The notes below the pieces were generated by a model, which was not told the origin of the DNA, searched no databases, and worked only from the letters and a program-made list of their open reading frames with translations. The translations under genes were made by a program, and so were the position numbers. A stretch of 64,000 bases of DNA from an uncultured bacterium (GTDB taxonomy: Bacteria; Vulcanimicrobiota; Xenobia; Xenobiales; Xenobiaceae), in NCBI GenBank assembly GCA_934636825.1, contig CAKUBG010000013.1, positions 1,234 through 65,233 on the forward strand, read 5' to 3'. Positions within the stretch are counted from its first letter, which is position 1. Every line of letters starts with the position of its first letter. Positions 5,001-64,000 of the stretch are shown in pieces.

Positions 5001-5113
5001 GTGTTGGCTTACGTATCGTCTTCCCCAACTTGGGCTTGGGTGTTATTCGTATAGACTACGCCTTTGGTAAAGATGGATCTCGCTCCAGTATTGGTATAGG
5101 CCAGTCCTTCTAA
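2066..5113 (+). CDS. bamA: Outer membrane protein assembly factor BamA/Omp85 with a ~300-aa low-complexity N-terminal extension
   Basis: ATG preceded by GGAGG. Signal peptide present. N-terminal K/A/E/S/T-rich low-complexity region. POTRA-like segments (VVSIEVEGNKTVSSEEIL..., VNEIVLEGN..., KEVKVEGVTVF...). C-terminal beta-barrel ending in the aromatic residue F (GIGQSF). Confidence 0.8.
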   Translation: MRNALGHVLSAAVLVGSFGTSLPAFAESLPGSTTGSPADPIPAVVKTGAELGYDYSVGENSRVLASQGQSENYEYVQPRILKLVASDGVAESEAASDVVSVSKTEDSQKTATVSTVSETVSTPVEHKAASKSTGKSNLEKAKAKLAQSRAARKLSASNSKVKANVTDKSAKQISKDAASEPKAEASEQKSAPVENDEKVADGQEIQSKGLPAQALEQSENKDKDTQAVDNKTGAVENVESAPAQTADSSADEAKKAEEDVKVTDKNDAEAQKTETKASAPISPIFSGTVEAITDNSLRIAGVSASGEPLSLDFIVDGNSQMAEGIKIGDSLSVFYEVSENGGFRVTSARYFSGEAPKNVFPGDIPSELTSDKSAVQDDNNTGLEEADIPKVVSIEVEGNKTVSSEEILQIISTRIGDPLLEPRIRRDMQAIYDSGYYTDVRLDTRYTSDGVRVIFRVLENPVVNEIVLEGNSVASSDKLRSLMQLETGKVLNTRILQNDLQSINKYYNEDLGYTISPSHITKLDFNGGKLTLTLADGIVVKEVKVEGVTVFPHDQIASMITLKPGDLFNRNTLRADTEKISALYDEKQYILDTIKPSVDVETGVVTVNVVEAVLQEIKLTWTGTSASKHRTKDDTVLRNIRTKPGEVMRRDRIQKDLERLNNLGLFKKVEPEVEPGAAPGQAILVLNIEEQKTGLATVGVGYAGGGSGAVRPGITGAISYSERNLFGEGKQFSVNLQRGAQIGAYSISYYDPAINSAQDSIGVSAYYNSVDDLEQQVTGADYGTYAYYDQEVYGATVTYGHPFSDDFRGFVTLRHETINLTMSGKSLYVPVGLGKGDLNAIGLSTLYDTRDDVFSPHKGSYANVALTFAGFGGDYNYKKFVVEGRHYVPLTKRSTLALRGMYGTVGNGAPASEYFYAGGTDTLRGYQDNSMFGNKVVLLNAEYRFPIGNIKMLSGAVFVDAGNAWISGYKSSELYTDAGVGLRIVFPNLGLGVIRIDYAFGKDGSRSSIGIGQSF

Positions 5114-7844: not shown

Positions 7845-7853
7845 GAGGTCGCG

Positions 7854-8411
7854 GTGAATAGAATTTTATGGTGCGGAGTGGTTATGACTGCGCTCACGGT
7901 CGGCTGCCTCTGTACGGCAGGTTGTACACCCAAGGAGAAAGTTGTCATTCGTACCGGCACTATCAACAGTACGGTTGTACTTCAGGAAGATGACAAATAT
8001 CAGGAATTGTCCCGCCAGTACTTCGCCGAGCGCATCAAGGCTAGCCAAGAAGTACAGCGTATAGTTAAAGAAAATTCCAACGCTGATGGCGTCGTCAGTG
8101 ATAAATCTGTTTATGATAAGCTCATGAAGATTCAGAGTGACGTTGAATCAAAATGGCAAAAACGCACTGCCGATTATATCGATGCCAAAATGAAAAGTAT
8201 GGAGAAAGCTGCTTCAGAAGTAGCTTTGGATAAGGAACTCGATATTGTTTTAATCGACTCCAACGATGTTCCAACTGTAGAGTATGGCGGTCACGACATT
8301 ACCGCTAATGTTCTGGCGGCTATGCCGGGATTTGCCGGAAATGCATCTTCTGAAGGCGAACAAAACAAAGGTGCCAAGACTGCGGAAAGTGGCTCTCAAG
8401 GCAGCAAGTAG
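7854..8411 (+). CDS. Skp/OmpH-family chaperone, lipoprotein-like (paralog 3)
   Basis: GTG start after GGAGGT. Signal peptide ending in Cys (LTVGCLCTAGC). Canonical ~160-aa OmpH body. Confidence 0.65.
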   Translation: MNRILWCGVVMTALTVGCLCTAGCTPKEKVVIRTGTINSTVVLQEDDKYQELSRQYFAERIKASQEVQRIVKENSNADGVVSDKSVYDKLMKIQSDVESKWQKRTADYIDAKMKSMEKAASEVALDKELDIVLIDSNDVPTVEYGGHDITANVLAAMPGFAGNASSEGEQNKGAKTAESGSQGSK

Positions 8412-8433
8412 AAAGAGCGGAGGGATAAACAAT

Positions 8434-8907
8434 TTGCAATATTCGAAGTTTGTACACTGCTTAGTTCTGACGGCTGTAAGTGCTATTCTGCTTTTGGGCG
8501 GTAGCGGTTGCGCTGAGCGTACATTAAAGGTTGGTGTTGTCAATACCGAGAGAATTATTAGAGAGAATCCTAAGTATATGGAGCTCAATGTTATTCTCTC
8601 CGACGAGCGCAGCAAGATCTATTCGCAAATTCCTAGCAATGTCAGCAGTATGTCTGTGGCTCAGAAAAAGGCCTTGCAAGAAAAGCTGGCCAAAGATGCT
8701 GCAGAGAGATCCAGCAAGTTTGATAAGCTCTACAATGAGAGTATGAAAGGTTTGCGGGAAGATATTAAAGCTCAAGCTTCCGAAGTGGCTCAAGACAAAG
8801 ATATAGATTTAGTTGTAGTTAACACTGTAAATTATCCTGTTGTGCTTTATACCAGCGGAGATAATATTACTCTGGATATTTTGCTGAAAATGGATGGCTC
8901 TAAATAA
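8434..8907 (+). CDS. Skp/OmpH-family chaperone, lipoprotein-like (paralog 4); start revised to TTG 8434
   Basis: GGAGGG RBS precedes the in-frame TTG. Signal peptide ending GGSGC. OmpH-like body (VGVVNTERIIRENPKY...). The ORF-track start at 8284 overlaps the upstream gene. Confidence 0.6.
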   Translation: MQYSKFVHCLVLTAVSAILLLGGSGCAERTLKVGVVNTERIIRENPKYMELNVILSDERSKIYSQIPSNVSSMSVAQKKALQEKLAKDAAERSSKFDKLYNESMKGLREDIKAQASEVAQDKDIDLVVVNTVNYPVVLYTSGDNITLDILLKMDGSK

Positions 8908-9621
8908 ATGGAAGAACAGTTTGTACATCCGAGTGCTTGCATAGACAGTTCCGCTTCTTTAGGTAAAGAGTGCAAAGTCGGAGCCATGGTCGTAATTGAA
9001 AGTGGAGCTAGAGTAGGCGACAGGGCTGAGATAGGCCCTAAAGCTTATATCGGTCGCAATGTTCGTATAGGTTCCGGAGCGATTATCGGCTGTGGGGCTG
9101 TGCTTATGGATGATACCGTTATCGGTGACAAAGCTGTTATTGAAGCAGGAGCAGTTTTAGGCATGGATGGTTTCGGCTATGTCTTTGACGGCCGGAGTCA
9201 TCGCAAGATCCCTCAAGTTGGCAATGTCGTTATTGGCGAGGGAGCTAAGATCGGTGCTTGTTCTTGTGTGGATAGAGCTGCTACAGCTTCTACTTTAATC
9301 GGAGACTATACTGAATTGGGGCATATGGTTATGGTAGGCCACAACAGTAAGGTCGGCAATCATTGTCGTATCGGCGACCAGAGTGGTTTGACCGGATCGT
9401 CTGTAGTAGGCAATAATTGCACCATCGGCTCTCAGTGCGGTATCGGTGTGCGTGTAGAGTTGGGAGATGGCTGTGTGCTTATGGATCGTTCTACAGCCAT
9501 GCGCAAGTATGAAGCCGGACAAGTTTTGGCCGGTAATCCCGGTCGTCCTGTGGCTGAAGTGCGTCGTGCCGAAGCTGCTTTTAACTTGCTTCCTAAGCTT
9601 TTAAAAGAGCATATGAAGTAA
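8908..9621 (+). CDS. LpxD-like left-handed beta-helix N-acyltransferase lacking the N-terminal uridine-binding domain
   Basis: 237 aa. Hexapeptide repeats and the LpxD-type core (GFGYVFDGRSHRKIPQVGNVVIGEGAKIGACSCVDRA). Sits in the canonical bamA-skp-lpxD position. ATG abuts the upstream stop. Confidence 0.7.
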   Translation: MEEQFVHPSACIDSSASLGKECKVGAMVVIESGARVGDRAEIGPKAYIGRNVRIGSGAIIGCGAVLMDDTVIGDKAVIEAGAVLGMDGFGYVFDGRSHRKIPQVGNVVIGEGAKIGACSCVDRAATASTLIGDYTELGHMVMVGHNSKVGNHCRIGDQSGLTGSSVVGNNCTIGSQCGIGVRVELGDGCVLMDRSTAMRKYEAGQVLAGNPGRPVAEVRRAEAAFNLLPKLLKEHMK

Positions 9622-9674
9622 TAATATTAGGCCCGTCGGCGTTGTGTGTTTCCGGCGGGCGTAATAATTTTAAA

Positions 9675-9701
9675 TGGCCCTTGCCGAGGGCTGTTTTTTT
9701 T
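9675..9701 (+). terminator. Rho-independent terminator
   Basis: GGCCCTTGCCGAGGGCT hairpin followed by TGTTTTTTTT. Confidence 0.55.
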
Positions 9702-9831
9702 CGTTAAATTGCCGTGCCTATAATGGGGGAAAATTTAGATATAAAGTTGCGGCATCGGGGGAAATAACAAATTGGGTTTGCTGTCTGTACTTGAAAACAG
9801 AGACAGCAAGTCTTATGGAGCTGAGTTTTTT

Positions 9832-14205: not shown

Positions 14206-15015
14206 GTGATTCATCCCAGCGCTATAGTACACCCCAAGGCACGCATAGGCGAAGGTGTAGAAATCGGCCCCTTTTCCATTATCGGTGAGAATGTCGAAAT
14301 TGGTGACGGTACCAAAATTATGTCGTCTGTAGTGATTGATGGTTGGACGACTATAGGTAAAAACAATCGTATCTATCCTGGCGTGACTATTGGCTTAGCT
14401 CCTCAAGATTTTAGCTATAAAGGGCAGCGCTCTTTTGTAACTATTGGCGACAATAACGATTTTCGCGAATATGTAACTATACACAGAGCTGCCGATGAAG
14501 ATGGACTTACTTCGGTAGGCAGTGGCAATCTCTTAATGGCCAATGTTCATATCGCTCACAATTGTCGTATAGGAAATCAGGTGACTATGGCCAACTACGC
14601 CGGCTTAGCTGGTCATACTGTTGTTGACGATCAAGCTGTTTTGGGTGGTTTGGTTGGTATTCATCAGCATACTCGTATCGGTCGTCTTTGTATGGTAGGC
14701 GGTTGCTCTAAGATCAATAAAGATTTACCTCCTTTTAGTATTGTTGACGGCAATCCGTGCCGTTTATTTAGTATGAACTTTAGAGGTATGCGCCGTCGCG
14801 ACATATCTAAAGAAAGCCGCTTGGCTATACAAAAAGCTATTTTTATCCTTGGCTCCATGGGCTTAACTATTAGTGCCGCTATAGAACGCATTGATAGTGA
14901 ATTAGAGCACACTCCTGAGGTTGAGCAATTCTTAGACTTCTTGCGCGCCCCTTCGCGCATGGGAGTGCTCAATAAAGCCAGCAATGTGGGGGCCAGAACC
15001 CACAATAACGCCTAG
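14206..15015 (+). CDS. lpxA: UDP-N-acetylglucosamine O-acyltransferase LpxA
   Basis: GTG start after GAGAGGAG. Hexapeptide repeats (MIHPSAIVHPKARIGEGVEIGPFSIIGENVEIG). LpxA-like C-terminal helical domain. Confidence 0.8.
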   Translation: MIHPSAIVHPKARIGEGVEIGPFSIIGENVEIGDGTKIMSSVVIDGWTTIGKNNRIYPGVTIGLAPQDFSYKGQRSFVTIGDNNDFREYVTIHRAADEDGLTSVGSGNLLMANVHIAHNCRIGNQVTMANYAGLAGHTVVDDQAVLGGLVGIHQHTRIGRLCMVGGCSKINKDLPPFSIVDGNPCRLFSMNFRGMRRRDISKESRLAIQKAIFILGSMGLTISAAIERIDSELEHTPEVEQFLDFLRAPSRMGVLNKASNVGARTHNNA

Positions 15016-17479
15016 TTGGTGCATTTTGGCCAATAACCAGCATCAGCAATTATCCGCCTGCCCGCAGCTTACGGTTGCTATAATCGCTGTAGAGCCTTCC
15101 GGAGATCTTCACGGAGGAAATTTGGCTAAGGCTCTGCTGGCAATTAACCCCAACTTGAAGTTTGTCGGTGTAGGCGGTTCGCATATGGCCGCGTCGGGAG
15201 TGAAGCTGTGGTTAAAAACCACTGATATGGCTATCATCGGTCCCGGCGGGGCTCTTTTGTGTTTGCACAAGTATATATATCACTACTTATATGTGCGCTC
15301 TCATTTGCTTGAAGCTAAGCCCCATCTGACTATTTTGATAGATTGTCCGGCTGTAAATATGCGTTATGCTGGTCTTTTAACCAGATATGGCTACAATTCT
15401 GTCTATTATTTCCCACCTTCAGCCTGGACAACGAGCGAAGCTCGCTTGCGTCAAATTTTTAGTCGCACTGACAGAGTTATTTGCACTTTTTTAAGCAATG
15501 CCGAAAATTACCGTCGTTTCGGTATGGAAGTTGATTTTTTCGGCCATCCCTTGTTGGATATGCCCGAATTGTCTATATCTCCTGAAGAGGCCAAGCGTAT
15601 TCTTGGTCTATCCGGAGAAAATATTTTAGCTATTTTGCCTGGCAGTCGGACGCCGGAAATAAAGTATCTTTTACCTACTTTTTTGAATATCGCTGAAAAA
15701 TTGCATGCAGAAAAGCCTGATTTGCAAGTTTTGATTCCGTGCGCTACCGAAAACTTGCACAGCCAAATCACCGAGATAATGGGAGATAGGTTCCCTTATG
15801 TACGCCTTCTTGATGGTCAGTCTCGTTTGGCTCTTTTATCTAGTCGAGCCGCTCTCATGAGCTCCGGTACGGCCAGTTTAGAAGCTGCTATTTTGGGCAC
15901 TCCTATGGTTTTAGCCTATAAGTTGTGCCCATTCGATGCTGCTGTGGGACGTTTTTTGCTTTGGGCCCATATTTTAAAAATAGATCATATCGGCTTGCCA
16001 AGTTTGGTAGTAGGTAAACGCATTGTTCCTGAATTTATTCAAGATGAAGTTAATGCCGAAAATATACTTCCACATTTGCGCAATTTTATGTCTGATACTC
16101 CTGAACGCCGTCAAATAAAACAAGATCTTTTGGATATGAAAAATTCTATGGGATCTCCGGGAGTTGTTGATAAAATAGCGGCTTCACTTTACGAGCGCAT
16201 TAAAAATAATGCTGAGCGCCGTCAAAAAGAGCCGTTTGATATTGTCATTACTTCTAATTCTCCTGGTGAAGTTGCTGCTTGGGTACGTCGCACTGTGGCC
16301 CATTTGGAAATAGCCAATCAAGGATTGTTTAGAGTAATAGTTGCTCTAGTTCCTTGCCCTTATGCTTCTGGGGCTGAAGCGGAAGTAGCTGCCTCTTTAC
16401 CCGGTGTGTCTGTTGTTTTGAAGCCTAGTCAGACTTTGCGCTTAATGCTTGGTTTATTTAACGATTTTAAATTTCGGCAGCGCGGCGTAGTTGTTTTCTT
16501 AGGCGGTGACTTACTCCATGCCAAAATTTTAGCTTGGCGTTTACGATACAAATCGGTGGCTTATGCCGTTAGATATAATTACTTTTTGCCTTATTTTGAC
16601 AAAGTAGCTGCTTCGGATACTGCTTTAGCTAAGGAGTTGGAAGAGGCTGGAATAAAGGAAGTTGTCAGTATTGGCAATTTGAGCATTGATGGTGTTTTTT
16701 CCGAAGTAGATCGCGAGTCTGCTTTGCAAAATAAAGAAAAGCGTGGCTCCTGGAAGATCGGTATTTTTCCGGGATCGCGTTTCTTGCACACTAAGATAGC
16801 TTTGGGAGTCTTTTTACGGGTAGCTGCTCTCATAAAGACGCGTTATCCTCAAGTAGATTTCGTACTCTCAGTCTCTCCTTTTGTTTCTAAAGCCAGATTA
16901 GAATCTGCTCTTTACCATCCTATAAGTTTGGGATTGCCTATAGCTAAAGGAAAGTTGGTAAGATCTGATTGTATTTTGGTAGATTGTCCCCATGAAGCTG
17001 AAGGTACAGCTGGACGTAGTTTTGAGGTAGAAGTGCTTTGGGGCCATCCTTACCAGGCTATTGCTGAAATTGATATGGCTCTTACTATTCCCGGAACTAA
17101 TACCGGAGAATTGGGAAGTTGCGGAAAACCGATGGTAGTGGGGCTGTCAGCTGATGCCTCTTTACCAAGAGGCGGAATCGGTGGTCTCTTAGAAAATGCG
17201 CCTCTTCTTTCTAAGATAAAACGTTACTTGCGTTTGCGCTCCTATGCTCGCCATGGTTTTGCTGCTATACCAAATCGTATCGCTTCACGTTTAGTCGTTC
17301 CTGAAGTTTTGGTTAAAAAAGATACTTCTGTTTTGGCTAAGCCTATTTTTGAATGGATTGAAGATCCTAAAAAATATGCGCAAACGGTTGAAGATCTGAA
17401 AAAGACTATGGGAACTACCGAAGGGGCCGGCCAACGCATGGCCGAGCTTATTTTAACAGCGGTGGCTTTAGAACAATGA
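14984..17479 (+). CDS. lpxB: Lipid-A-disaccharide synthase LpxB fused to a second ~430-aa LpxB-related domain
   Basis: LpxB N-terminal signature (TVAIIAVEPSGDLHGGNLAKAL). 831 aa, versus ~380 aa for stand-alone LpxB. Exact start uncertain: ATG 14984 overlaps lpxA by 32 nt and a TTG at 15026 is an alternative. Confidence 0.7.
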   Translation: MWGPEPTITPSWCILANNQHQQLSACPQLTVAIIAVEPSGDLHGGNLAKALLAINPNLKFVGVGGSHMAASGVKLWLKTTDMAIIGPGGALLCLHKYIYHYLYVRSHLLEAKPHLTILIDCPAVNMRYAGLLTRYGYNSVYYFPPSAWTTSEARLRQIFSRTDRVICTFLSNAENYRRFGMEVDFFGHPLLDMPELSISPEEAKRILGLSGENILAILPGSRTPEIKYLLPTFLNIAEKLHAEKPDLQVLIPCATENLHSQITEIMGDRFPYVRLLDGQSRLALLSSRAALMSSGTASLEAAILGTPMVLAYKLCPFDAAVGRFLLWAHILKIDHIGLPSLVVGKRIVPEFIQDEVNAENILPHLRNFMSDTPERRQIKQDLLDMKNSMGSPGVVDKIAASLYERIKNNAERRQKEPFDIVITSNSPGEVAAWVRRTVAHLEIANQGLFRVIVALVPCPYASGAEAEVAASLPGVSVVLKPSQTLRLMLGLFNDFKFRQRGVVVFLGGDLLHAKILAWRLRYKSVAYAVRYNYFLPYFDKVAASDTALAKELEEAGIKEVVSIGNLSIDGVFSEVDRESALQNKEKRGSWKIGIFPGSRFLHTKIALGVFLRVAALIKTRYPQVDFVLSVSPFVSKARLESALYHPISLGLPIAKGKLVRSDCILVDCPHEAEGTAGRSFEVEVLWGHPYQAIAEIDMALTIPGTNTGELGSCGKPMVVGLSADASLPRGGIGGLLENAPLLSKIKRYLRLRSYARHGFAAIPNRIASRLVVPEVLVKKDTSVLAKPIFEWIEDPKKYAQTVEDLKKTMGTTEGAGQRMAELILTAVALEQ

Positions 17480-30074: not shown

Positions 30075-32147
30075 TTGAAGCTACAGAGGTGCAAGGTGCA
30101 TTTAGAACAAGAAAATACAATATGCAAATTCCCCTTTGAGTACAAACTCAGTAGGGGAACGTTCACTTTTTGTTTGATCCTTGCTTTGGCAGGGATCGCA
30201 CAAGCGCAGCCTGCCAAAGAGCTGCCCGCTGCGGAAATGTTTGAACCGGCAGCTTCTTATTGCTTGTCTGAAAGCAACTTGCCGAACTTGCTTTCTGCTA
30301 AAAACGAGCCGGAAATTCAGCTTAGTACAAATAAAAAAAATTCTGCTCCTGCTGCCGGAACTCCGGAATATAATTATCAATTAGCACAAAAATACTACAG
30401 TGAAAAGGTTTTCCCTAAGGCTATTAAGTTTTTTACTCAAGCCGCCGAAGATGGACACGTAGGAGCACAGAGCTTCTTGGGACGCTGCTATTATAAAGGC
30501 GAAGGCGTTGAGCTCGACTATGCCAAAGCCGCTGAGTGGCTGACGAGAGCTAGTGAGCAAGACGACCACTTAGCTCAATACTATCTCGGGCTTTGCTATG
30601 AAAATGGTCGCGGTGTGGAACAAAATTTTGCTACTGCTGCCAGCTATTATGAAAGCGCTGCTTTCGGCGGAGTTCCTGAAGCTCAAAATAATTTAGGTCG
30701 TTACTACTATTTTGGTCGCGGCGTGGAACGTGATTATCAGCAAGCTGCTGCTTGGTTTTTGCGAGCTGCCAACCAGAAATTACCCAATGCTATGTATAAC
30801 TTAGGCGTTTGCTATGATTTGGGCCAAGGAGTGGAGAAAGATCAGCAAAAAGCCATAGATCTCTATTTTAGGGCAGCTAATGCCGGAGAAGCGAGTGCTC
30901 AATGCAATTTGGGCATGTGCTATAGCGCTGGCTCCGGAGTCGAAAAAGATTTAAATAAAGCCTTCTCTTGGTATCAGAGGGCTGCTATTGGTGGCAATGC
31001 CAAAGCTCAAAACAATTTAGGTGTTTGTTACAAAAACGGTGAGGGTGTTCAGCGCAATCCGCGTGAGGCTGCGCGTTTATTTGTGGCTGCGGCCGATCAG
31101 GGGCTGGCCGGAGCTCAATATAATGCTGGTTGGTCTTATTTAAATGCTTTCGGTGTTGGCCGCGACTACCGCAAAGCTTTCGAATATTTCTCTAAAGCAG
31201 CCGCTCAAAATTATCCTAAAGCACAATTGCAATTGGCTTCACTATACCAGCAAGGCAAAGGTACAGAGCAAAATTATGAAGAGGCGGCTCGCTGGTATGG
31301 CGTGGCTGCCGAACATGGCATTCCGGTGGCTAAATATTGCTTGGGACGTTGTTATGCTTCAGGCCAAGGAGTTGAGCAAGACATGGGGCGTGCTGTCGAG
31401 CTTTATACGGAAGCTGCCGATCAAGGAGACGGTGAAGCTCAGTATGAGCTGGCTATGTGCTATAGAAATGGTGTGATCGTTTCCCAAGATTACGCAAAGT
31501 CTGCTCAACTTTTACGCAAGGCGTCCGATCAGGATATAACTGAAGCTCAAGCCTATCTTGGGGCAGCTTATCTTTTGGGAGAAGGTGTGAAAGCGGATCC
31601 TAAAGTAGCTTTTAAACTCTTTAATAGAGCCGCCGATAAGGGCAGCATCTTAGCCGATTACGCTTTGGGATGTATGTATTATGAGGGCGTAGGTACACAT
31701 AAAAATTTCAGCAAGTGCATTACTCATTGGAATAATGTGGCTCGCAGCGGCTATGCTATTGCCCAAAACAATTTGGGATATTGCTACTATTATGGTCGCG
31801 CCAATGAACAAAATAATCAAAAGGCTTTAAAGTGGTGGCGTCGCGCTGCCGGTCAAGGTTATGGCAATGCTGAAAATGCTCTTGGTGTAGCCTATTTCAC
31901 CGGTTTAGTTGTCAATAAAAATTATGAAGTTGCTGGAGAATGGTTTAAGAAAGCCGCTGAACACGGAGACGTAGAGGGCAAGGATAATGTCTCTTTGCTT
32001 GAAGGTGTAGACTCTGAACAATTGCCAGGTCTGACTGATCGTTTGGCGTTTGGCTTTAATTACTTGTCGCTTAAAGAACTTGAAGAATTTATTAAAGTTT
32101 ATGAGTCTCAAGAAAACACAAACGCTATTACTGACGAGGAAGAGTAG
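30075..32147 (+). CDS. Sel1-repeat (TPR-like) protein, ~16 repeats, with signal peptide
   Basis: Recurring 36-aa units of the form AQ-NLG-CY--G-GV--D---A--W---AA. Confidence 0.75.
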   Translation: MKLQRCKVHLEQENTICKFPFEYKLSRGTFTFCLILALAGIAQAQPAKELPAAEMFEPAASYCLSESNLPNLLSAKNEPEIQLSTNKKNSAPAAGTPEYNYQLAQKYYSEKVFPKAIKFFTQAAEDGHVGAQSFLGRCYYKGEGVELDYAKAAEWLTRASEQDDHLAQYYLGLCYENGRGVEQNFATAASYYESAAFGGVPEAQNNLGRYYYFGRGVERDYQQAAAWFLRAANQKLPNAMYNLGVCYDLGQGVEKDQQKAIDLYFRAANAGEASAQCNLGMCYSAGSGVEKDLNKAFSWYQRAAIGGNAKAQNNLGVCYKNGEGVQRNPREAARLFVAAADQGLAGAQYNAGWSYLNAFGVGRDYRKAFEYFSKAAAQNYPKAQLQLASLYQQGKGTEQNYEEAARWYGVAAEHGIPVAKYCLGRCYASGQGVEQDMGRAVELYTEAADQGDGEAQYELAMCYRNGVIVSQDYAKSAQLLRKASDQDITEAQAYLGAAYLLGEGVKADPKVAFKLFNRAADKGSILADYALGCMYYEGVGTHKNFSKCITHWNNVARSGYAIAQNNLGYCYYYGRANEQNNQKALKWWRRAAGQGYGNAENALGVAYFTGLVVNKNYEVAGEWFKKAAEHGDVEGKDNVSLLEGVDSEQLPGLTDRLAFGFNYLSLKELEEFIKVYESQENTNAITDEEE

Positions 32148-39771: not shown

Positions 39772-42700
39772 ATGGGTAATGTGAATGTCGCTAAGGCGAT
39801 TATGGACGCCAATGAAGCTACCGCCGATGTAGCTTTTAGACTTAGTGAAGTTTGCGCAATCTATCCTATTACTCCCTCTTCTCCTATGGGCGAATTCGCC
39901 GATCAGTGGAGCGCTGAGGGCCGTAAGAATTTATGGGGAGCTATTCCTCACATCCAGGAAATGGAATCTGAAGGCGGCGCTGCCGGTGCTGTGCATGGTG
40001 CTTTGCAAAGCGGTGCTTTGACTACCACCTTTACAGCTAGCCAAGGCTTGCTGCTCATGATCCCCAACATGTACAAAATCGCCGGCGAGCTTACCAGCGC
40101 TGTTTTCCACATCGCTGCTCGTTCTCTGGCTGCTCAGGGCTTGTCCATCTTCGGCGACCACGCTGACGTAATGGCTTGCCGCGCTACCGGCTTTGCTATG
40201 CTCTTCTCCAATTCGGTACAAGAAGCTACTGACATGGCCGCTATCGCTCACGCTGCTACTTTAGAGAGCCGCGTGCCTTTCATTCACGCCTTTGACGGTT
40301 TCCGTACTTCCCACGAAGTAAACACCATCGAGCGCATTTCTGACGATGTACTCCGTGAGCTCATTCCCGATTCTTTGGTTCACGCTCACCGCGCTCGCGC
40401 TCTCAATCCCAACAAGCCTTTCATTCGCGGTACTGCCCAAAACGCAGATATCTACTTCCAGGGCCGCGAAGCTGCCAACCCCTACTATTTGAAGACCCCC
40501 GGCATTGTTGCCAAATTGATGAAACGCTTTGGCGAACTCACCGGCCGTCACTACAACCTCTTTGAGTACCATGGTCACCCCGAAGCTGAAGAAGTCGTCG
40601 TCCTTATGGGCTCCGGCGTTTCTGTTGTTCGCGGCACCTTGGACAAATTATTAGCTGAAGGCAAGAAAGTTGGCGTCGTAACCGCCCGCTTGTATCGTCC
40701 TTTCGATGCTAAGTCCTTCATTGAAGCCGTTCCCGCCACCGTAAAGACCATCGGCGTTTTGGATCGTACCAAAGAGCCCGGCAGCGCTGGCGAGCCTCTT
40801 TATCAAGATGTTGTTACCGCCGTTATGGAAAATATGGAAGGCGGCAAGGGCAAGTTCGCTGTATTGCCTCGCGTTATTGGCGGTCGTTATGGTCTTTCTT
40901 CTAAAGACTTCACTCCCGCTATGGTTTGCGGCGTATACAACGAGTTGGCTAAAGCTGAGCCTAAGCGCAGCTTTACTGTCGGTATTCACGACGATGTTAC
41001 CAACTTGAGCATTGATTATGATGCCAACTGGATCAGCGAACCCGAAGGCACTGTAAGAGCTATGTTCTACGGTTTGGGCTCCGATGGTACCGTAGGTGCT
41101 AACAAAAACTCCATTAAGATTATCGGTCACGACACCGACAACTATGCTCAGGGCTACTTCGTCTACGACTCCAAGAAGTCCGGCGGTTTGACCGTTTCTC
41201 ACTTGCGCTTCGGTCCTAAGCCCATTGACGCTCCCTTCCTCATTCAGCGCGCCAGCTTCATTGGCGTACACCTCTTCGAGTTCTTGGAGAGCTACGATGT
41301 TTTGAAGCAAGCTGAAGAAGGTGGCGTATTCCTCCTCAACAGTCCTTTCTCCAAGGACGAAGTTTGGGATCAGCTTCCTGCCGAAGTTCAGGAGACTATC
41401 TTAGCCAAACACCTTAAATTCTACGTTATCGACGCTTTGACTGTGGCTCACAATGCCGGTATGGGCAACCGCATCAATACCGTCATGCAGACCGCCTTCT
41501 TTGCTATCAGTGGCGTGTTGCCTCGCGAAGAAGCTATCGAGCACATTAAAGCCAGCATTAAGAAGGCTTACAGCAAGAAAGGCCAAGAAGTTGTAGCTAA
41601 GAACTGGGCTGCCGTAGACAACAGCTTAGCCGCTTTGCATCAGGTAGAGACCGAAGGCCGCAAGGTTACCGGTCACCATCGCAAGCCTTTGGTATCCGAC
41701 GAAGCTCCTGAGTTCGTCAAGAAAGTTACTGCCGTAATGATGGCTCAGCGTGGCGACGAACTTCCCGTCAGCGCTATTCCTGATGACGGCACTTGGCCCA
41801 GCGGCACCACTCGTTGGGAAAAACGCAATATCGCTTCCGAAGTTCCCAGCTGGGATCCCGCTAAGTGCATTCAGTGCGGTAAGTGCGTTATGGTTTGCCC
41901 TCATGGCGTCATTCGCTCTCGCCTCATCACCAACGAAGACGCTGCCAAAGCTCCCGAGAGCTTCAAGCTCGCCGAAGCTAAAGGTTTTGTTGGTTACAAA
42001 GACTACAAGTTCAGCATGCAGATTTCCGTTGAAGACTGCACCGGCTGCACTCTGTGCGTAGGCGTTTGCCCCGCCAAAGAAAAAGCTCTCACCATGGTTC
42101 CTCAGCGTCCTCTCCGCGAAGAAGGTCGCAAAAACTGGAAGTTCTTCCTCGATTTACCTGACTTGGGTGGCGACTTGAAGCGCACTATGGTTAAGAACGT
42201 ACAGTTGCTTCCTCCTATGTTCGAGTTCTCCGGCGCCTGCGCTGGTTGCGGTGAGACTCCTTACGTGAAGATGGTCAGCCAGCTCTTCGGCGATAGAGCC
42301 ATGATTGCCAACGCTACTGGTTGCTCTTCCATCTATGGCGGCAACTTGCCCACCACTCCTTGGTGCACCAACAAAGACGGACGCGGCCCTGCTTGGTCCA
42401 ACTCCCTCTTCGAAGATAACGCCGAGTTCGGTTTGGGTATGCGTGTAGCCGTAGACCAGAAGGCCGAATATGCCCGTCAGCTCCTTACCGAAGCTAAGGA
42501 CAAGATCGATCCCGAAGTTTACGAAGGATTGATGGCTGTTGAGCCCGCTACTCCCGAGAATATCGCTAAGAAACGCGCTTTACTCGATAAGCTGGCTGAA
42601 AAAGTAAAAGGCTGCGATTGCGCTTGCGCCAGAGAGCTCGAGTCCGTTATGGACGCTTTGATTCCTCGTTCAGTGTGGATCATCGGTGGTGACGGTTGGG

Positions 42701-43320
42701 CTTATGACATCGGTTACGGCGGGTTGGATCACGTTTTGGCCCAGGGCAAGAACGTCAACGTCCTCGTACTCGACACCGAAGTTTACTCCAACACCGGTGG
42801 TCAGGCTTCCAAGGCCACTCCTCTTGGTGCTGTAGCTCGCTTCGCTGCTGCTGGTAAGAGCTTGCCTAAGAAGGATCTGGGCATGATTGCTATGTCTTAT
42901 GGCAACATCTACGTGGCTCAAATTTCTGTCGGCGCCAATGACGCTCAGGCTTTGAAAGCTATCGAAGAAGCTGAATCTTACGATGGTCCTTCTTTGATCA
43001 TTGCTTACTCTCACTGTATCAACCACGGTATTAACATGGCCGACGGTTTGAAGCATCAGAAGAACGCTGTAGAGTGCGGCCAGTGGCCTCTCTACCGCTT
43101 CGATCCTCGCTTAAAAGCTCAAGGTAAGCCTTGCTTACAAGTCGACTACAAAGGCCCGAAGACCCCCGTTGCCGACTACTTGGCCAGTGAGAACCGCTTC
43201 CGTCAGCTTCAGAAGATCAACCCCGAAGCTGCCGCCAAGTTCGCCGAAGAGTCCGAAGCTATCGCTAAAGAACGCTATGAGCGCTACTTGCACTTGGCTT
43301 CCGCTCCTGAAGCTAAGTAA
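39772..43320 (+). CDS. nifJ: Pyruvate:ferredoxin (flavodoxin) oxidoreductase, single-chain PFOR
   Basis: 1182 aa. Two 4Fe-4S ferredoxin motifs (CIQCGKCVMVCP, CTGCTLCVGVCP). TPP-binding region GGDGWAYDIGYGG. Confidence 0.9.
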   Translation: MGNVNVAKAIMDANEATADVAFRLSEVCAIYPITPSSPMGEFADQWSAEGRKNLWGAIPHIQEMESEGGAAGAVHGALQSGALTTTFTASQGLLLMIPNMYKIAGELTSAVFHIAARSLAAQGLSIFGDHADVMACRATGFAMLFSNSVQEATDMAAIAHAATLESRVPFIHAFDGFRTSHEVNTIERISDDVLRELIPDSLVHAHRARALNPNKPFIRGTAQNADIYFQGREAANPYYLKTPGIVAKLMKRFGELTGRHYNLFEYHGHPEAEEVVVLMGSGVSVVRGTLDKLLAEGKKVGVVTARLYRPFDAKSFIEAVPATVKTIGVLDRTKEPGSAGEPLYQDVVTAVMENMEGGKGKFAVLPRVIGGRYGLSSKDFTPAMVCGVYNELAKAEPKRSFTVGIHDDVTNLSIDYDANWISEPEGTVRAMFYGLGSDGTVGANKNSIKIIGHDTDNYAQGYFVYDSKKSGGLTVSHLRFGPKPIDAPFLIQRASFIGVHLFEFLESYDVLKQAEEGGVFLLNSPFSKDEVWDQLPAEVQETILAKHLKFYVIDALTVAHNAGMGNRINTVMQTAFFAISGVLPREEAIEHIKASIKKAYSKKGQEVVAKNWAAVDNSLAALHQVETEGRKVTGHHRKPLVSDEAPEFVKKVTAVMMAQRGDELPVSAIPDDGTWPSGTTRWEKRNIASEVPSWDPAKCIQCGKCVMVCPHGVIRSRLITNEDAAKAPESFKLAEAKGFVGYKDYKFSMQISVEDCTGCTLCVGVCPAKEKALTMVPQRPLREEGRKNWKFFLDLPDLGGDLKRTMVKNVQLLPPMFEFSGACAGCGETPYVKMVSQLFGDRAMIANATGCSSIYGGNLPTTPWCTNKDGRGPAWSNSLFEDNAEFGLGMRVAVDQKAEYARQLLTEAKDKIDPEVYEGLMAVEPATPENIAKKRALLDKLAEKVKGCDCACARELESVMDALIPRSVWIIGGDGWAYDIGYGGLDHVLAQGKNVNVLVLDTEVYSNTGGQASKATPLGAVARFAAAGKSLPKKDLGMIAMSYGNIYVAQISVGANDAQALKAIEEAESYDGPSLIIAYSHCINHGINMADGLKHQKNAVECGQWPLYRFDPRLKAQGKPCLQVDYKGPKTPVADYLASENRFRQLQKINPEAAAKFAEESEAIAKERYERYLHLASAPEAK

Positions 43321-52355: not shown

Positions 52356-52889
52356 ATGCGTAAATTCACAGCCACACTCTTCCTGCTGGCCACTTTGTCG
52401 CTGGGCTGCCTAGCGGTAGGTGCTGCGCCGGCTATGGCGGATGAGAGCATGAAGACCGTGAACTTAGTAACTGAGTTCGGTCCTTACACTTATAGTATTT
52501 ATGAGTATCCTTCTTACAATACCAGTTTCTTCTTCTATGAGAATAGCTACGTCGAATTTGACGTAGTAAATGGTACTTCTTGGAGAATCGAAGCCCCTAA
52601 GGCTATGATTCACAAGGAGCCCGCTGTCCCCGGTGAGACTTTGCTGGGCACCGGCCGCACCTACAATTCCATCGAGAATTTTGACGTATACTTCTACGCT
52701 CCCGACGGCACTCTCTTAGCTACCCGCAAGAACGCTAGATTGAGCGACAATTATAGCTTCCCCCGTGAGCGTCAGCATGACAAGGTGCGTGTGCGCATCG
52801 AGTCTAGAGGCGTGCAGAACTTAGATGCTAAGTTCATCGTTTGGGATCCGGTCAACCCTGTGGTTGCCAAACCCATTGTAGAGAAGTAG
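52356..52889 (+). CDS. Small secreted protein (177 aa), unknown function
   Basis: Signal peptide with AxA site (AAPAMA-DE). RBS GGAGTAGG. Aromatic-rich predicted beta protein. Confidence 0.5.
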   Translation: MRKFTATLFLLATLSLGCLAVGAAPAMADESMKTVNLVTEFGPYTYSIYEYPSYNTSFFFYENSYVEFDVVNGTSWRIEAPKAMIHKEPAVPGETLLGTGRTYNSIENFDVYFYAPDGTLLATRKNARLSDNYSFPRERQHDKVRVRIESRGVQNLDAKFIVWDPVNPVVAKPIVEK

Positions 52890-59376: not shown

Positions 59377-61749
59377 TTAATAGTTGGCAAACATTTTTAC
59401 TTTAACTTTACGCTGAGCAGCCATCTCCAAAAGCTTACTAATGTAGTTGGGATCGAAAGTCATTTCTACACTTTTAGCTTTGTAATAAATGTTGCCCTTA
59501 CCATCCGATTTGGTAGCTTCACCATCTTTTTGTGGATCTTTACCGTAAGCTACCATGGAACCGGTCAAATTTAAGCGACTGTCTTTACCTATATTGACGT
59601 TGATATTGCCACAAGCATAAATAACGCCGGCAATTTCCTGGTCAGAGTAGTTTATGCCTTTGTAACGTCCTATCAATTCGGTAAGTTGTTCTTTTTTGTA
59701 ATTTTCGTAATTGGTAGTTTGCTTATCGGAAGCAACTAACTTTTCGCTAAGATCAGGATCTTTAACTGTAGCCATGTTGTTGTCTTCATCAGTTGAGTTT
59801 TTCTTATCTTTAGCGTCTTTTTGAGCTTGCTTATAGATTCTCTTTACATCTCTGTAATATTCACAGCTATCTTTGTGCTCTTGGGGATGAGGTATGATTT
59901 CTCTGCCGTCATGAAATAAACAAGCACACCAAGTAACACTGGTGTCCAAATGTTTGTATTGTTTTAAGGCGTCTCCATTGTTGTCAGTATCGTTAAAGCC
60001 GTTGATATAGACGTTGCGCAAATATTCATTAGCTTTGGTCGTATTGACAAAGCCCCATTCGTTTTCATCAGGGCCGTTGCAACAATAAATCATGTTATTT
60101 GTTCGGCAATAATCACAAGGTTCACGGAGTTTGACGCTGGTGCCACTTACGGCGTTAGAAGTCGCTTCTGCCAAGGTACCTTCGGTGGGAACTTGAGTAA
60201 TGGTTTCTTTGTCTTCCGCTAAGCCAGTGCTGGGATCGACAGTTACGTTGTCGTAAGGTTTTTTTGTGTCTTTATTTTCGGTTGGCAATACTTCTTCCAT
60301 ATGGGCGGTGGTATTGTAAATAGTCTCTAAATTGACGTCGCCTTTGGCATAGATAGACACGCCTACGCCGGGATCAGATTCCAAAATGCTGGGGCCTTGC
60401 ATGCTGATATTGCCAGCTGCAGTGATGGCGCCATTTCCGATAGTAGCGCCGGAAATCATAACGTTGCCGGTACTGGTTAAAATAGTGGTCTTATTGTCGC
60501 CTTTCTTTTCGTTGGCAAAACCTACAATAGGGCGTGTACCATATTCATTGATATCAGAGCGTATAAGTATGTCGCCATCTACGTAGGAGTTTTTGTCAAA
60601 CATAATAGTTAGGTTTTCATTATCAACAGAAAATTTGCTGTTGCTTTTGTTTATTACTTCGTAACCGGAGTTGGGAAGTGTCGTGCCATAATAGTAGATT
60701 TTGTTAGCGTAATGGCGCAATTCATTCTGACTGCCGTTACGAACCCAAACATAAGTGCCGGGAGTAATAGGATTGTCATTTTCAGAGGCTTTGGGGACGT
60801 CGTTCCAAGTGATAGCTGTAAAGTTTTTGCCGGAATCGCTTTGCTGGGATTTTATTTGATCGTTATTAGCGCCATCTACATTGAAATGATCACCGTAATA
60901 AACGGTAGTGTCGCTGCTTATACCTAATCCCTGACTTATATTTAAGTCTACGTTGCCCAAAGAACGCATATTGGGGGCACCGCTGCCATCAGAGGCGCGT
61001 AAGGCAAATTGAGCTACGTCGGCCGTGATATTACCAGCAGCACTGACTACGGCGTCAGAATTTAAAGAGCTGGGATCGATAGCGATATAAAGCTCTACTA
61101 CTTGGCTAGCATAGCTGGATTTGGAGTTGAGAGGTTTATCTAAAGTTGCTTCTCGCACGGCCGGGCCGCTAAAACCTTCTACAATTAAGTTGCAAGTGGC
61201 TTTGGGAATAGTGATAGCTGTTACGCCGGTATCCGGCTTGAATACTGTTTTATTTCCTTCGCTGAAACTTTTGCCTCTAACTACGCCATTTTCGTCGGCC
61301 GGATAAGCAAAACAAGGGACGCTGCTGCCTAGATTGTTGGTAGAAATATAAGGAGACTCGATCTTTTGAGTGCTGTTTTTCATGCCGTCAAGACCGCCGT
61401 CTCCATCTTCGCAATTAAATTTAATGCGGAAAACAGACTTCTTGCCGTTAGTGCTGGTCAAAATGCCCCAAACGTTACCGTCTTCTTCTTTTATTTCTAA
61501 ATTATCTGTCTTAAGCGTATAGGCTGTTGTGGGATCGGCTTTCCAAAGTATATTGCTTTGTAGGCGAGTGATGGCATACTGAGCACCAGACTGAGCGGCC
61601 ATAAGGGCTGTTTCTTTGTCATAGAAATTGGTAGTAAGTCTTAAACTGCCAAGGTTGGAATATACGACCGAACTTAAGAGCATAATAACCAACACGACTG
61701 TGAGCATTGTCGTTATCAGCACTATGCCTTTTCTTTGCTTGATAAGCAT
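59377..61749 (-). CDS. Giant PilX-N-like (minor-pilin-like anchor) beta-helix-repeat protein with a Cys-rich insert, paralog A
   Basis: RBS GGAGATGG. N-terminus MLIKQRKGIVLITTMLTVVLVIMLLSSVVYSNLGSLRLTTNFYDKETALMAAQSGAQYAITRL. Repeats such as NVMISGATIGNGAITAAGNISMQG. Eight Cys clustered in ~80 aa. Confidence 0.6.
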   Translation of the reverse strand: MLIKQRKGIVLITTMLTVVLVIMLLSSVVYSNLGSLRLTTNFYDKETALMAAQSGAQYAITRLQSNILWKADPTTAYTLKTDNLEIKEEDGNVWGILTSTNGKKSVFRIKFNCEDGDGGLDGMKNSTQKIESPYISTNNLGSSVPCFAYPADENGVVRGKSFSEGNKTVFKPDTGVTAITIPKATCNLIVEGFSGPAVREATLDKPLNSKSSYASQVVELYIAIDPSSLNSDAVVSAAGNITADVAQFALRASDGSGAPNMRSLGNVDLNISQGLGISSDTTVYYGDHFNVDGANNDQIKSQQSDSGKNFTAITWNDVPKASENDNPITPGTYVWVRNGSQNELRHYANKIYYYGTTLPNSGYEVINKSNSKFSVDNENLTIMFDKNSYVDGDILIRSDINEYGTRPIVGFANEKKGDNKTTILTSTGNVMISGATIGNGAITAAGNISMQGPSILESDPGVGVSIYAKGDVNLETIYNTTAHMEEVLPTENKDTKKPYDNVTVDPSTGLAEDKETITQVPTEGTLAEATSNAVSGTSVKLREPCDYCRTNNMIYCCNGPDENEWGFVNTTKANEYLRNVYINGFNDTDNNGDALKQYKHLDTSVTWCACLFHDGREIIPHPQEHKDSCEYYRDVKRIYKQAQKDAKDKKNSTDEDNNMATVKDPDLSEKLVASDKQTTNYENYKKEQLTELIGRYKGINYSDQEIAGVIYACGNINVNIGKDSRLNLTGSMVAYGKDPQKDGEATKSDGKGNIYYKAKSVEMTFDPNYISKLLEMAAQRKVKVKMFANY

Positions 61750-61884
61750 GAGCCATCTCCAAAAGTAAAACTTTATATAAAATAAAAAATAACCAAATCC
61801 CTAAAAATCGGAAAAATTCCTAATCAGCCCTTTTTAGTTGCAGCTAAAAGTTCCTACACAGAATCGCTAAAAAAATAATAAAAA

Positions 61885-61921
61885 AAGCCGCCGTAATGGT
61901 GTTTTACGGCGGCCTCCTTTA
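61885..61921 (-). terminator. Rho-independent terminator downstream of paralog B
   Basis: Minus-strand reading GAGGCCGCCGTAAAACACCATTACGGCGGC followed by TTTTTTTATTATTTTTTT. Confidence 0.6.
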
Positions 61922-61929
61922 TTTGCTTT

Positions 61930-64000
61930 CTAGTAGTTGGCAAACATTTTTATTTGCAACTTGCGTTTAGCTGAAGCGTTGAGCAACTTATTTAAGTAGT
62001 TAGGGTCGAATGCCAGATCGACGCTTTTGGCATTGTAGTTGATATTTCCGGTATCGGTAGTTTTTGTCGCATCTTGCTCTTTATTGGGTTCGCGTCCGTA
62101 AGCAACCATAGCTCCGGTTACGCTTAAACGGCTATCGGAGCCAATATTGACATTGATATTTTTCCAAGCATAAATAACGCCGGCAATCTCTTGATCGGAG
62201 TATTTGATGCTGTCGTAGCGCTTAATTAAAGTATCTAATTGTTCACGCTTGTAGTTCTCATAATTGGTCGTTTGCTTAGAGCTATCTACCAATTTATCAC
62301 TAAGCGTGGGATCGTCAATTGAAGCCATTTGATCGCTTTTGGTTGGGCTATCGTTTTTATGATCATCGTCATCATCGTCATCGCGACTGTCAGACCAATC
62401 TTCCCAATCATCTTCGGCGTCTTCATAAACATCTTTTACTGCTTTCATAAAATTGCAGTCGTTTTTGTGACTACCATTATGAAATCCGCAATTACACTCA
62501 ACGTTTAAATTGATGAATTGTGTCCTTCCTTTTTTCAGGAAACCGGCTTGATACACTTGAATGAGAAGATCCGGATGATTTGGATTAAATATTCCTTTAG
62601 TTTTGCAAAAAGATGTGGGGTGTTCAGCACAGTGGTCGCATACTTTATGATTACTGTTCTTTTTGTATTTAGTAGCATATTCAGAAGATTTTCTTTCTGC
62701 AGCTTTTTCCCGATTTGTATCAGTGGTGTTGTCACTGTCGCTATTATTATCGTCGCCTACACTTGGGGTAGAAGATATAGTGTCTTTTTCGCTAGCTGCA
62801 CCAGTAGTGGGATCGATTTTTACATTATCGTAAGGGCCACTGCCTTCGGGACGATCGGTAGGTAATTTATCTTCCATACTGGCGCTAGTATTATAGATAG
62901 GCTCTATTGTAACATCGCCTTTAGAATAGATAGAGACACCTACGCCTGGATCTGATTCTAAAAGGCTGGGGCCTTGTATAGTGATATTGCCCTCGGAGGT
63001 TATGGCACCACTACCCATAGTAGCTCCGGAAATAGTAATATTACCCTTGCTTGTTAAAATGGTGGTGCCGCTATCGCCTTTATTTTTGTTGACAAAGCCA
63101 ACAATTGGCCTCGTTCCATACTCATTGATGTTGGAGCGAATGAGCAAATCTCCAGGCACATATACATTTTGATCGAACATGACCGTTAAATTTTTGCTAT
63201 CGACGGTCATGCCGTTGAATTTACCTGTGCTTACAGTTTGGTAGCCGCTATCTGGAAGTGGCTTTCCGTCATAAAAAATAATAGTTGGATAGTGGCGCAA
63301 CTCTATAGCTTTGGTTGTTGGGTTTTTTTCCCATACATAAGTTCCGGCTGGCAAATTTGTGTCACTTTTAGTTGCTTTGGGGACATCTGCCCAAGTAATT
63401 TTGGCAAAATTCTCTCCTGAATTGCTCTTTTCGTGTTTTATATTTGTTTCTGTCGCTCCGTTTACCGTAAAGCCGTCATTAAAGAAAACGGTACCACTTC
63501 CGGCGTTCACCTGGCCGGTTAAGGCAACGTGGCCCAAAGAGCGTATATTGGGAGCTTGAGTGCCTTCTGCGCTATTCAATCTGAAAGCACCAGTTTTGGC
63601 ATTGATATTACCTGAAGCGCTGATTGCCGAATCCACATTTAAAGAGCTTGGATCGATAGAAGCATAAATTTCTACGATCTGATGGGCGTAGGAAGATTTT
63701 GTGTCGATAGGCTTAGATAAACTGGCGTCGCGTACGGCTGGGCCGCTAAAGCCTTCGACTATCAGATTGCAAGTGCCCTTGGGAATGGTTACTTGTTTGG
63801 CGTCGGAATGAGGCTTAAAAACTTCTTTGCCATTTTCGGTGACTGTTTTGCCTTGGATAATGCCATTTTTATCGGCCGAATAAGCTATGGAAGGAACGCT
63901 GCTAAAAAGGTTGTTGGTAGAAATGTAAGGAGACTCGATCTTGTGGGCACTGTCATCCATATTATCGAAACCGCCAGGGCCGTCTTCACAATTGAATTTT
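61930..64000 (-). CDS. Giant PilX-N-like beta-helix-repeat protein, paralog B; 5' end truncated by the window edge
   Basis: Collinear with paralog A from KFNCEDG...ESPYISTNNL onward. The reading frame stays open to the window end, and upstream residues match paralog A, so the true start lies beyond position 64000. Carries its own Cys-rich insert and a poly-Asp linker. Confidence 0.6.
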   Translation of the reverse strand, partial: KFNCEDGPGGFDNMDDSAHKIESPYISTNNLFSSVPSIAYSADKNGIIQGKTVTENGKEVFKPHSDAKQVTIPKGTCNLIVEGFSGPAVRDASLSKPIDTKSSYAHQIVEIYASIDPSSLNVDSAISASGNINAKTGAFRLNSAEGTQAPNIRSLGHVALTGQVNAGSGTVFFNDGFTVNGATETNIKHEKSNSGENFAKITWADVPKATKSDTNLPAGTYVWEKNPTTKAIELRHYPTIIFYDGKPLPDSGYQTVSTGKFNGMTVDSKNLTVMFDQNVYVPGDLLIRSNINEYGTRPIVGFVNKNKGDSGTTILTSKGNITISGATMGSGAITSEGNITIQGPSLLESDPGVGVSIYSKGDVTIEPIYNTSASMEDKLPTDRPEGSGPYDNVKIDPTTGAASEKDTISSTPSVGDDNNSDSDNTTDTNREKAAERKSSEYATKYKKNSNHKVCDHCAEHPTSFCKTKGIFNPNHPDLLIQVYQAGFLKKGRTQFINLNVECNCGFHNGSHKNDCNFMKAVKDVYEDAEDDWEDWSDSRDDDDDDDHKNDSPTKSDQMASIDDPTLSDKLVDSSKQTTNYENYKREQLDTLIKRYDSIKYSDQEIAGVIYAWKNINVNIGSDSRLSVTGAMVAYGREPNKEQDATKTTDTGNINYNAKSVDLAFDPNYLNKLLNASAKRKLQIKMFANY

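Follow-up and report, generated by a model that had tools for sequence, protein, structure and literature searches.

What does a bacterium do with several diverged copies of a large protein that begins like a pilin? The question is raised by the end of a 64,000-nucleotide stretch of DNA from an uncultured human-gut bacterium of the class Xenobia (GenBank assembly GCA_934636825.1, contig CAKUBG010000013.1, positions 1,234 to 65,233; hereafter the window), where two homologous open reading frames (ORFs), here called paralogues A and B, stand in tandem on the minus strand. An original prediction, made from the letters of the sequence, had taken them for PilX-like tip proteins with a beta-helix body. 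We consider it fairly probable that A and B belong to a set of four ancient, tandemly encoded minor pilins of the GspK/PilX class, which cap a type IV filament and serve as its alternative tips. The assignment to the cap pilins by architecture is the firmer part of this explanation, the idea of alternative adhesive tips the weaker one.

The ORF calls bear out the arrangement that had been described. A is complete (790 amino acids, 59377..61749), and B (61930..64000) runs off the window, which holds 689 of its 798 codons, corresponding to residues 110-798; the first of these residues, KFNCEDG, align to residue 109 of A, and the two proteins share 55-59% identity. At about 800 amino acids, the word 'giant' used for them is an overstatement. 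The start of B could be read on the public contig L001 (Logan ERR7738162), which matches the window letter for letter along 14,624 bp (0 mismatches), adds 7.7 kb and carries the full gene at 7424-9820. The same contig corrects the number of paralogues from two to four, encoded in the order D-C-B-A with A as the last gene.

A pilin-like start and a predicted ComZ-like body

Paralogue A opens with a basic leader of seven residues and a glycine (MLIKQRKG; 61726..61749, minus strand), followed by about 22 hydrophobic residues (IVLITTMLTVVLVIMLLSSVVYSN...). This is the layout of a class III, or prepilin-type, signal (MLIKQRKG, then IVLITTMLTVVLVIMLLSSVV), with a predicted peptidase cut after G8. 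B, as read on L001, begins with MLERKKKG-IVLVTTML..., and the basic stretch and helix claimed for both ORFs are thus present in both, for A within the window and for B outside of it. Of 232 family sequences, 189 show the class III layout, and their leaders have a median length of seven residues; G8 is conserved in at least 90% of the family alignment. At position +5 of the mature protein A has Thr, and none of the 189 family members has Glu. As the absence of Glu5 is a hallmark of cap subunits of the GspK/PilX type (bioRxiv 10.64898/2026.02.12.705559), this finding points to the cap subclass and does not argue against membership in the pilins.

In profile searches, PilX_N (PF14341) aligned to residues 7-55 of A (61585-61731) with E=1.9e-5 and 25.0 bits at a gathering cut-off of 25.5. 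Among 61 aligned relatives, 47 match the same model (E<=0.01, best 6.7e-8), and a precomputed PF14341 match is recorded for many homologues (the homologue set for A comprised 99 sequences). The proposed PilX-like N-terminus was hence recovered in most relatives, while A itself is borderline. Besides PilX_N, no Pfam family matched A at E<=1, and the C-terminal beta-propeller of PilY1/PilC was not found. The GspK model (NCBIfam NF037980) gave a weak match to residues 7-66 alone (19.2 bits against a cut-off of 130), leaving the alpha-helical insertion domain of GspK unmatched in A.

An AlphaFold 2 model of A, built on a 61-sequence alignment, reached a predicted local distance difference test score (pLDDT) of 84.1 and a predicted template modelling score (pTM) of 0.72. 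It predicts a helix of 63 residues, the alpha1 helix of the pilin fold (residues 3-65 in the DSSP assignment; 61555..61743), followed by four strands (residues 77-110) and a beta-rich body that extends to about residue 480 (sheet and body residues 120-480 together at 60310..61554). The predicted remainder consists of a mixed helical module (about residues 480-700), a C-terminal beta region and a terminal strand. When the model was compared with the PDB by Foldseek, ComZ of Thermus thermophilus (6qvi) was the sole match at E<=0.001 (E=2.9e-4), the solenoids of ice-binding proteins coming next, below the threshold. A second model, calculated for P0094, a 28%-identical relative without the big module (pLDDT 77), again had ComZ as its sole significant match, in three chains (best E=1.9e-5, probability 1.00). 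ComZ combines a GspK-like pilin fold with a solenoid of about 380 residues inserted before the last strand; its pilin domain most resembles GspK and its solenoid the ice-binding proteins, and its location at the pilus tip has been argued on steric grounds (PMC6561018). Judged from the two models, the relation of our proteins to ComZ is architectural and distant.

The conserved C-terminal beta region of A (residues 691-790; 59380..59679; 42-65% identity among the paralogues) contains a terminal strand at residues 782-789 in the model as well as the invariant residues D703, G708, Y711 and G730. This strand probably returns to the pilin sheet, and the solenoid would then interrupt that sheet between its last two strands, as in ComZ. 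The beta-rich, ComZ-like model is in line with the beta-helix originally proposed for the body. The long repeats on which that proposal had been built are absent: of the two motifs quoted, G-x-V-x-I-x-G is found a single time, in A, and N-x-T-I-x-G two times, both in B. What stands is a short solenoid signature, with rung motifs at residues 420-475 of A (60325-60492); the relaxed rung motif G[ND][IV]x[IVLM] is found six times in A, where shuffled sequences have 0.26 on average, and B has weak matches to the FapA/MinC_C beta-solenoids.

Between the body and the C-terminal region lies a variable module (residues 481-690 of A; 59680..60309), in which the paralogues share only 8-33% identity. It is of a six-Cys type in A (59863-60117, pLDDT 82-85 over residues 531-610) and B (62455..62640, CDHC...C...CNC...H...C) and of an acidic helical type in C and D. 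An eight-Cys cluster had been announced for each ORF; we count seven Cys in the insert of A and six in that of B, six of which are invariant in all 25 A/B-type sequences. They follow the pattern C-x2-C-x7-C ... C-x-C ... H-x4-C, in which the His five residues ahead of the last Cys is invariant too. The poly-Asp linker described for B is there, as a run of seven Asp within its variable module (62362..62382), and paralogue D carries a run of eight.

An old array of full-length genes

On L001, all four genes of the array are full length (D 799, C 781, B 798 and A 790 amino acids) and each has its own ribosome-binding site, that of A being a GGAG 7 nt upstream of the ATG (61757..61760). The terminator postulated between the two paralogues exists and is intrinsic, with a 20-bp stem including seven G-C pairs and a subsequent T-run (61877..61923, minus strand; L001 9827-9873). 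Strong intrinsic terminators stand 3' of D and of B, and none was found 3' of C or A when the array genes were checked on L001 and in the window. An Rfam scan of the whole window gave zero matches.

How old are these copies, and what keeps them alike? Identity among the four paralogues amounts to 72-89% in the helix, 32-59% in the body, 8-33% in the module and 42-65% in the C-terminus. Synonymous sites are saturated throughout, the 5' end included (proportion of synonymous differences, pS, 0.5-1.0), and the near-identity of the helix despite this saturation therefore reflects selection and not gene conversion. Selection on the helix sequence itself is thus strong, as expected for packing in a filament core. 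Compared with orthologues of other species, the ratio of nonsynonymous to synonymous substitution rates (dN/dS) lies between 0.01 and 0.19 in all regions, with a dN of the module that is 3-7 times higher than elsewhere while dS is saturated. The ORFs are real and under purifying selection, and the paralogues are ancient; positive selection at individual sites cannot be excluded at a saturated dS.

In other species, each of the D, C, B and A types has its 1:1 orthologue, in identical order. L001 and L007 share D-C-B-A, L009 has D-C-B-A'-A, L041 a truncated D followed by C-B-A, L010 C-A-A, and L004 four D-type genes, a split C and A. More distant rumen and other lineages carry independent arrays of four (L016) and six copies (L021). 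From gene order and sequence comparison, the history of the locus is best described as birth-and-death evolution of an old array and not as cassette switching. Decay may be seen in progress in a sister species, in which the D-type copy (L041 2991-4782) is truncated to a 530-residue ORF, with the last 76 residues of the protein following in a different frame and the variable module deleted; this copy is probably decaying. In L004/L013, the C-type copy is split into parts of 208 and 590 amino acids. Two sequences first considered as extra genomic copies, L019 and L026, were rejected as such, being the first array gene on fragmented contigs.

Beyond these arrays, a profile search of the full library returned 1,021 cluster representatives, most of them 600-900 amino acids long. 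Most align to the N-terminal approximately 500 and the C-terminal approximately 90 positions and leave the module unmatched; ten distant representatives of the family have no Pfam match at all.

The array is flanked on one side by a divergently transcribed alpha-amylase of about 1,165 amino acids and on the other by genes for a carbon-nitrogen hydrolase, a POT transporter and HtpG. An alpha-amylase of about 1,160 amino acids is the constant divergent neighbour of the first array gene in genomes of the type of 'Candidatus Bruticola', a name carried by several homologues (L001 1-2062 on the minus strand, L004 3530-7000, L019 6244-9747, L026 6229-9723, L041 1-2719). The linkage could be functional, through starch binding or secretion, or it could be coincidental. 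Between an ABC-like gene and HtpG, the window also encodes a 177-residue predicted secreted protein (52356-52889, plus strand) without Pfam match, the synteny of which is kept in L001 and in L041-L044.

A lower GC content (guanine plus cytosine) than in the surroundings had been noted for the locus. It is 0.418, the mean of the window being 0.441, which is within the range of the 2-kb blocks (0.40-0.52) and hence not anomalous. Together with a tetranucleotide correlation of 0.95 between the array locus and the rest of the window, this led us to reject the horizontal transfer that an anomalous GC might have indicated.

Filament genes of relatives and competing explanations

In high-GC environmental Vulcanimicrobiota, the family gene is single-copy and adjoins prepilin genes (L005, L030, L033, L034, L035, L036). 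These neighbours are a GspI/PilV-like protein of about 150 and a GspJ/PilW-like protein of about 255 amino acids, both with canonical G-F-(S/T)-L-x-E motifs, and the best scores of partner genes in relatives were obtained with the GspI, GspJ and GspG models. By gene order, the single-copy gene occupies the GspK/PilX slot in a tip-complex cassette. In UBA6111, a member of the Xenobia, a GspG-like pilin lies 4 kb from the family gene, and PilB and PilT-like ATPases are found on another contig. In RUG807, a metagenome-assembled genome (MAG) of a rumen Xenobia with several family copies, PilB and one of these copies are 8 kb apart. These prepilin cassettes, the PilX_N similarity, the class III layout and the ComZ match of two models are four independent lines of evidence that uphold the idea of a PilX-like tip protein with a beta-helix body.

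Some of the environmental clusters have unusual contents. In L005 (7471-10004), and likewise in L030 and L035, two membrane proteins are encoded between the GspI/J-like genes and the family member, one of 683 amino acids with a faint cytochrome-c (RoxA-like) match and one of 163 amino acids resembling Ferric_reduct, both uncommon passengers of a minor-pilin operon. L033 (6367-8118) and L036 (13661-14929, minus strand) have second, shorter PilX-like genes (583 and 422 amino acids) in the minor-pilin cluster of the family member, with Arg-Gly, a hydrophobic helix and a weak match to the GspK N-terminus. Some environmental relatives may thus have two different cap candidates per cluster.

For the gut lineage, we infer the following course, from processing through tip location and ligand binding to the alternative use of the paralogues. 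Prepilin peptidase would cut after G8, and in the inner membrane the mature protein would prime filament assembly together with minor pilins that are GspI/PilV-like and GspJ/PilW-like. The lack of Glu5 and a body as wide as the fibre would place it at the distal tip. There, the module of about 200 residues in the body would form the most variable surface and likely the ligand-binding part, and the array would offer alternative tips of differing specificity.

Several observations weigh against this proposal. The PilX_N score of A stays 0.5 bit under the Pfam cut-off, the ComZ matches have low TM-scores (0.13-0.30), and the family profile found no PDB sequence at E<=1 and nothing but helical-bundle noise at E<=10. 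Among 35 window ORFs searched against Pfam there was no type IV pilus gene, and genes for a pilin, PilB/C/D or a secretin were found neither in the 64-kb window nor within ±10 kb of any gut-type array; the upstream genes, as read on L001, are paralogues C and D and the alpha-amylase, and the pilin and peptidase genes that might have been expected there are absent from gut-type flanks. No PilB could be traced to the gut lineage either: searches for PilB homologues gave proteins of Xenobia and Eremiobacterota, none of which could be assigned to Bruticola-type genomes, and a metagenome scan gave PilB matches of <=50% identity alone.

Three PilB loci were considered as belonging to this lineage and set aside. 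The GC content of L040 fits (0.417), but in tetranucleotide usage L040 correlates with the window at no more than 0.61, and the nearest relative of L040 lies on a 7.6-Mb contig; L045 and L126 belong to other lineages. The PilB loci L037-L040, L045 and L126 share a gene order (LexA-like, FecR, CHASE2-adenylate/guanylate cyclase, in some cases a cNMP-binding HD-GYP protein, PilB with MshEN and T2SSE domains, GAF-HD), which suggests control of the filament ATPase by cyclic nucleotides.

Could the proteins then be derived from pilins without being filament subunits any longer, in a gut lineage that lost its type IV machinery or makes no use of any? The N-terminal helix would in this case be an uncleaved signal anchor by which a large domain of the periplasm or envelope is tethered to the inner membrane. 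Such a role would agree with the uncoupling of gut and rumen arrays from all other pilin genes and with the absence of any type IV pilus gene from the approximately 100 kb of lineage sequence examined and of a PilB traceable to the lineage. A plain anchor, however, needs hydrophobicity only, whereas the 25-residue segment is essentially identical between paralogues that are 32-59% identical elsewhere and saturated at synonymous sites; leader and Gly are retained, and other host-associated, multi-copy Xenobia do carry PilB on the same contig. We regard this explanation as unlikely. A different filament would be involved if A and B were analogues of GspK at the tip of a type II secretion system (T2SS) pseudopilus, perhaps exporting the alpha-amylase of about 1160 residues in the manner of the pullulanase secreton. 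The weak GspK match at the N-terminus, the preference of the partner genes for the GspI, GspJ and GspG models, the closeness of the ComZ pilin domain to GspK and the constant position of the array beside a divergent amylase gene in Bruticola-type genomes speak for it. But the GspK alpha-domain is lacking (19 bits against a cut-off of 130, with the N-terminus alone), a T2SS uses one GspK, where 3-7 diverged copies exist here, PilB of UBA6111 comes together with PilT-like retraction ATPases, and the amylase linkage has been observed in a single genus, all of which makes the secretion tip quite improbable.

The likeness to ComZ also calls to mind a competence pilus with a DNA receptor at its tip. 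ComZ is the sole significant structural match, one cyanobacterial PilX subfamily serves competence pili (bioRxiv 10.64898/2026.02.12.705559), and a DprA gene lies near the Xenobia-type PilB in L126. Yet the structural match is distant and accompanied by no shared sequence, the lysines through which ComZ binds DNA cannot be located here, no competence genes are found nearby among the window ORFs, and four to seven diverged copies with acidic, poly-Asp modules are unlike what a DNA receptor needs; we give this role a very slim chance. Tandem copies with a conserved 5' end, a hypervariable internal module and a copy number that varies between species finally resemble the pilE/pilS-style cassettes that exchange sequence by gene conversion, and antigenic variation had in fact been suggested for A and B. 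This reading is largely refuted and, in our estimation, hardly credible any more: all copies are full length with their own ribosome-binding site and some with their own terminator, promoterless truncated silent copies are missing, and dN/dS is below 0.2 in every region. The saturation of synonymous sites even at the conserved 5' end and the conserved D-C-B-A order of 1:1 orthologues across species rule out recent conversion between these old paralogues. We thus favour cap minor pilins of a type IV filament as the explanation for the array.

Host lineage, related systems and implications

The names of homologues ('bacterium UBP9', 'Candidatus Bruticola sp.') lead to the phylum Vulcanimicrobiota (formerly Eremiobacterota/WPS-2), class Xenobia, and a scan of species-representative genomes found the family confined to Vulcanimicrobiota-type MAGs. 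The nearest genome record, a 96% identical human-gut MAG, is mislabelled as Riflebacteria. Family-bearing records L006, L012, L019 (CAAGRW01), L024 and L025 carry 'Candidatus Riflebacteria' or 'Burkholderiales' in their titles, probably in error, as 96% identity and tetranucleotide usage put the CAAGRW01 contigs in the Xenobia lineage of the window.

The window itself contains a block for outer-membrane biogenesis (2066-29631) with BamA (2066-5113), Skp/OmpH, LpxC, LpxA, LpxB, LpxD, LptC, LptB and LptF/G. The BamA, Skp, Lpx and Lpt genes indicate a diderm organism with lipopolysaccharide, and the cultured Vulcanimicrobium alpinus is a diderm that makes type IV pili (PMC9758169). The LpxB ORF (14984-17479, plus strand) encodes 831 amino acids, of which residues 31-380 form the LpxB domain and the approximately 450 C-terminal ones have no Pfam match; it may be a fusion. 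Further genes on the plus strand encode a Sel1 protein of 690 amino acids with 13 Sel1 repeats (30075-32147) and a pyruvate:ferredoxin oxidoreductase of 1182 amino acids (39772-43320), the latter in the sole GC-rich block of the window (0.49-0.52 against 0.44).

Among known systems, ComZ of T. thermophilus (PDB 6QVI; Salleh et al. 2019, PMC6561018) shares the pilin-like helix and small sheet that bear a very large beta-solenoid and is encoded among minor pilins. In contrast to the proteins described here, it is single-copy and binds DNA; ours are about 250 residues longer, contain an additional variable module, occur in 3-7 tandem copies that are unlinked from partner pilins in gut genomes, and have no detectable sequence similarity to it. 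All cyanobacterial PilX proteins are reported in a 2026 preprint to have a ComZ-like architecture, and different PilX paralogues were proposed to prime different filaments (bioRxiv 10.64898/2026.02.12.705559). By the description in that paper, PilX1-3/HpsA-type proteins resemble ours in the absence of Glu5, a bulky, ice-binding-protein-like solenoid in the pilin fold and the presence of several paralogues, but they co-occur with dedicated PilV partners and do not form tandem arrays of 3-7.

With GspK of the T2SS and PilX of the Pseudomonas type IVa pilus, our proteins have in common the leader, Gly, a hydrophobic helix without Glu5, the PilX_N motif and, in relatives, GspI/J-like neighbours. 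They differ from GspK in that its alpha-domain is not matched, and from the proteobacterial PilX, which has about 200 amino acids and works beside a separate PilY1 adhesin, in carrying the bulky domain within the pilin itself. A further parallel is offered by modular pilins such as PilB of Streptococcus sanguinis with its vWA module (PMC8179133), where a functional module grafted on a pilin scaffold gives the filament its binding activity. The modules described there are vWA or lectin modules in single-copy pilins of a monoderm, whereas we find a solenoid combined with a six-Cys or acidic helical module.

But, why should a gut bacterium keep so many caps? One possible, though doubtful, scenario is that in gut and rumen Xenobia a single cap subunit expanded more than once into a birth-and-death array of 3-7 copies, each with a different module in its solenoid, which would provide one machine with interchangeable tips of differing specificity for host glycans, starch or dietary particles, or other cells, with the cap genes regulated apart from the priming complex.

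Until now, the known solenoid-bearing cap pilins were ComZ of Thermus and, since very recently, the PilX proteins of cyanobacteria. Our analysis extends this architecture to a third, almost uncultured phylum and to a large family for which no Pfam model exists past the first approximately 55 residues, and it adds human-gut and rumen arrays with swapped internal modules that are detached from their partner pilins. Should the lineage turn out to be devoid of filament machinery, the array would represent pilins re-used as envelope proteins. If the copies do serve as alternative tips, they would represent a simple genetic route to diversify the binding of a pilus and would be a starting point for understanding the attachment of an uncultured gut lineage to its niche.

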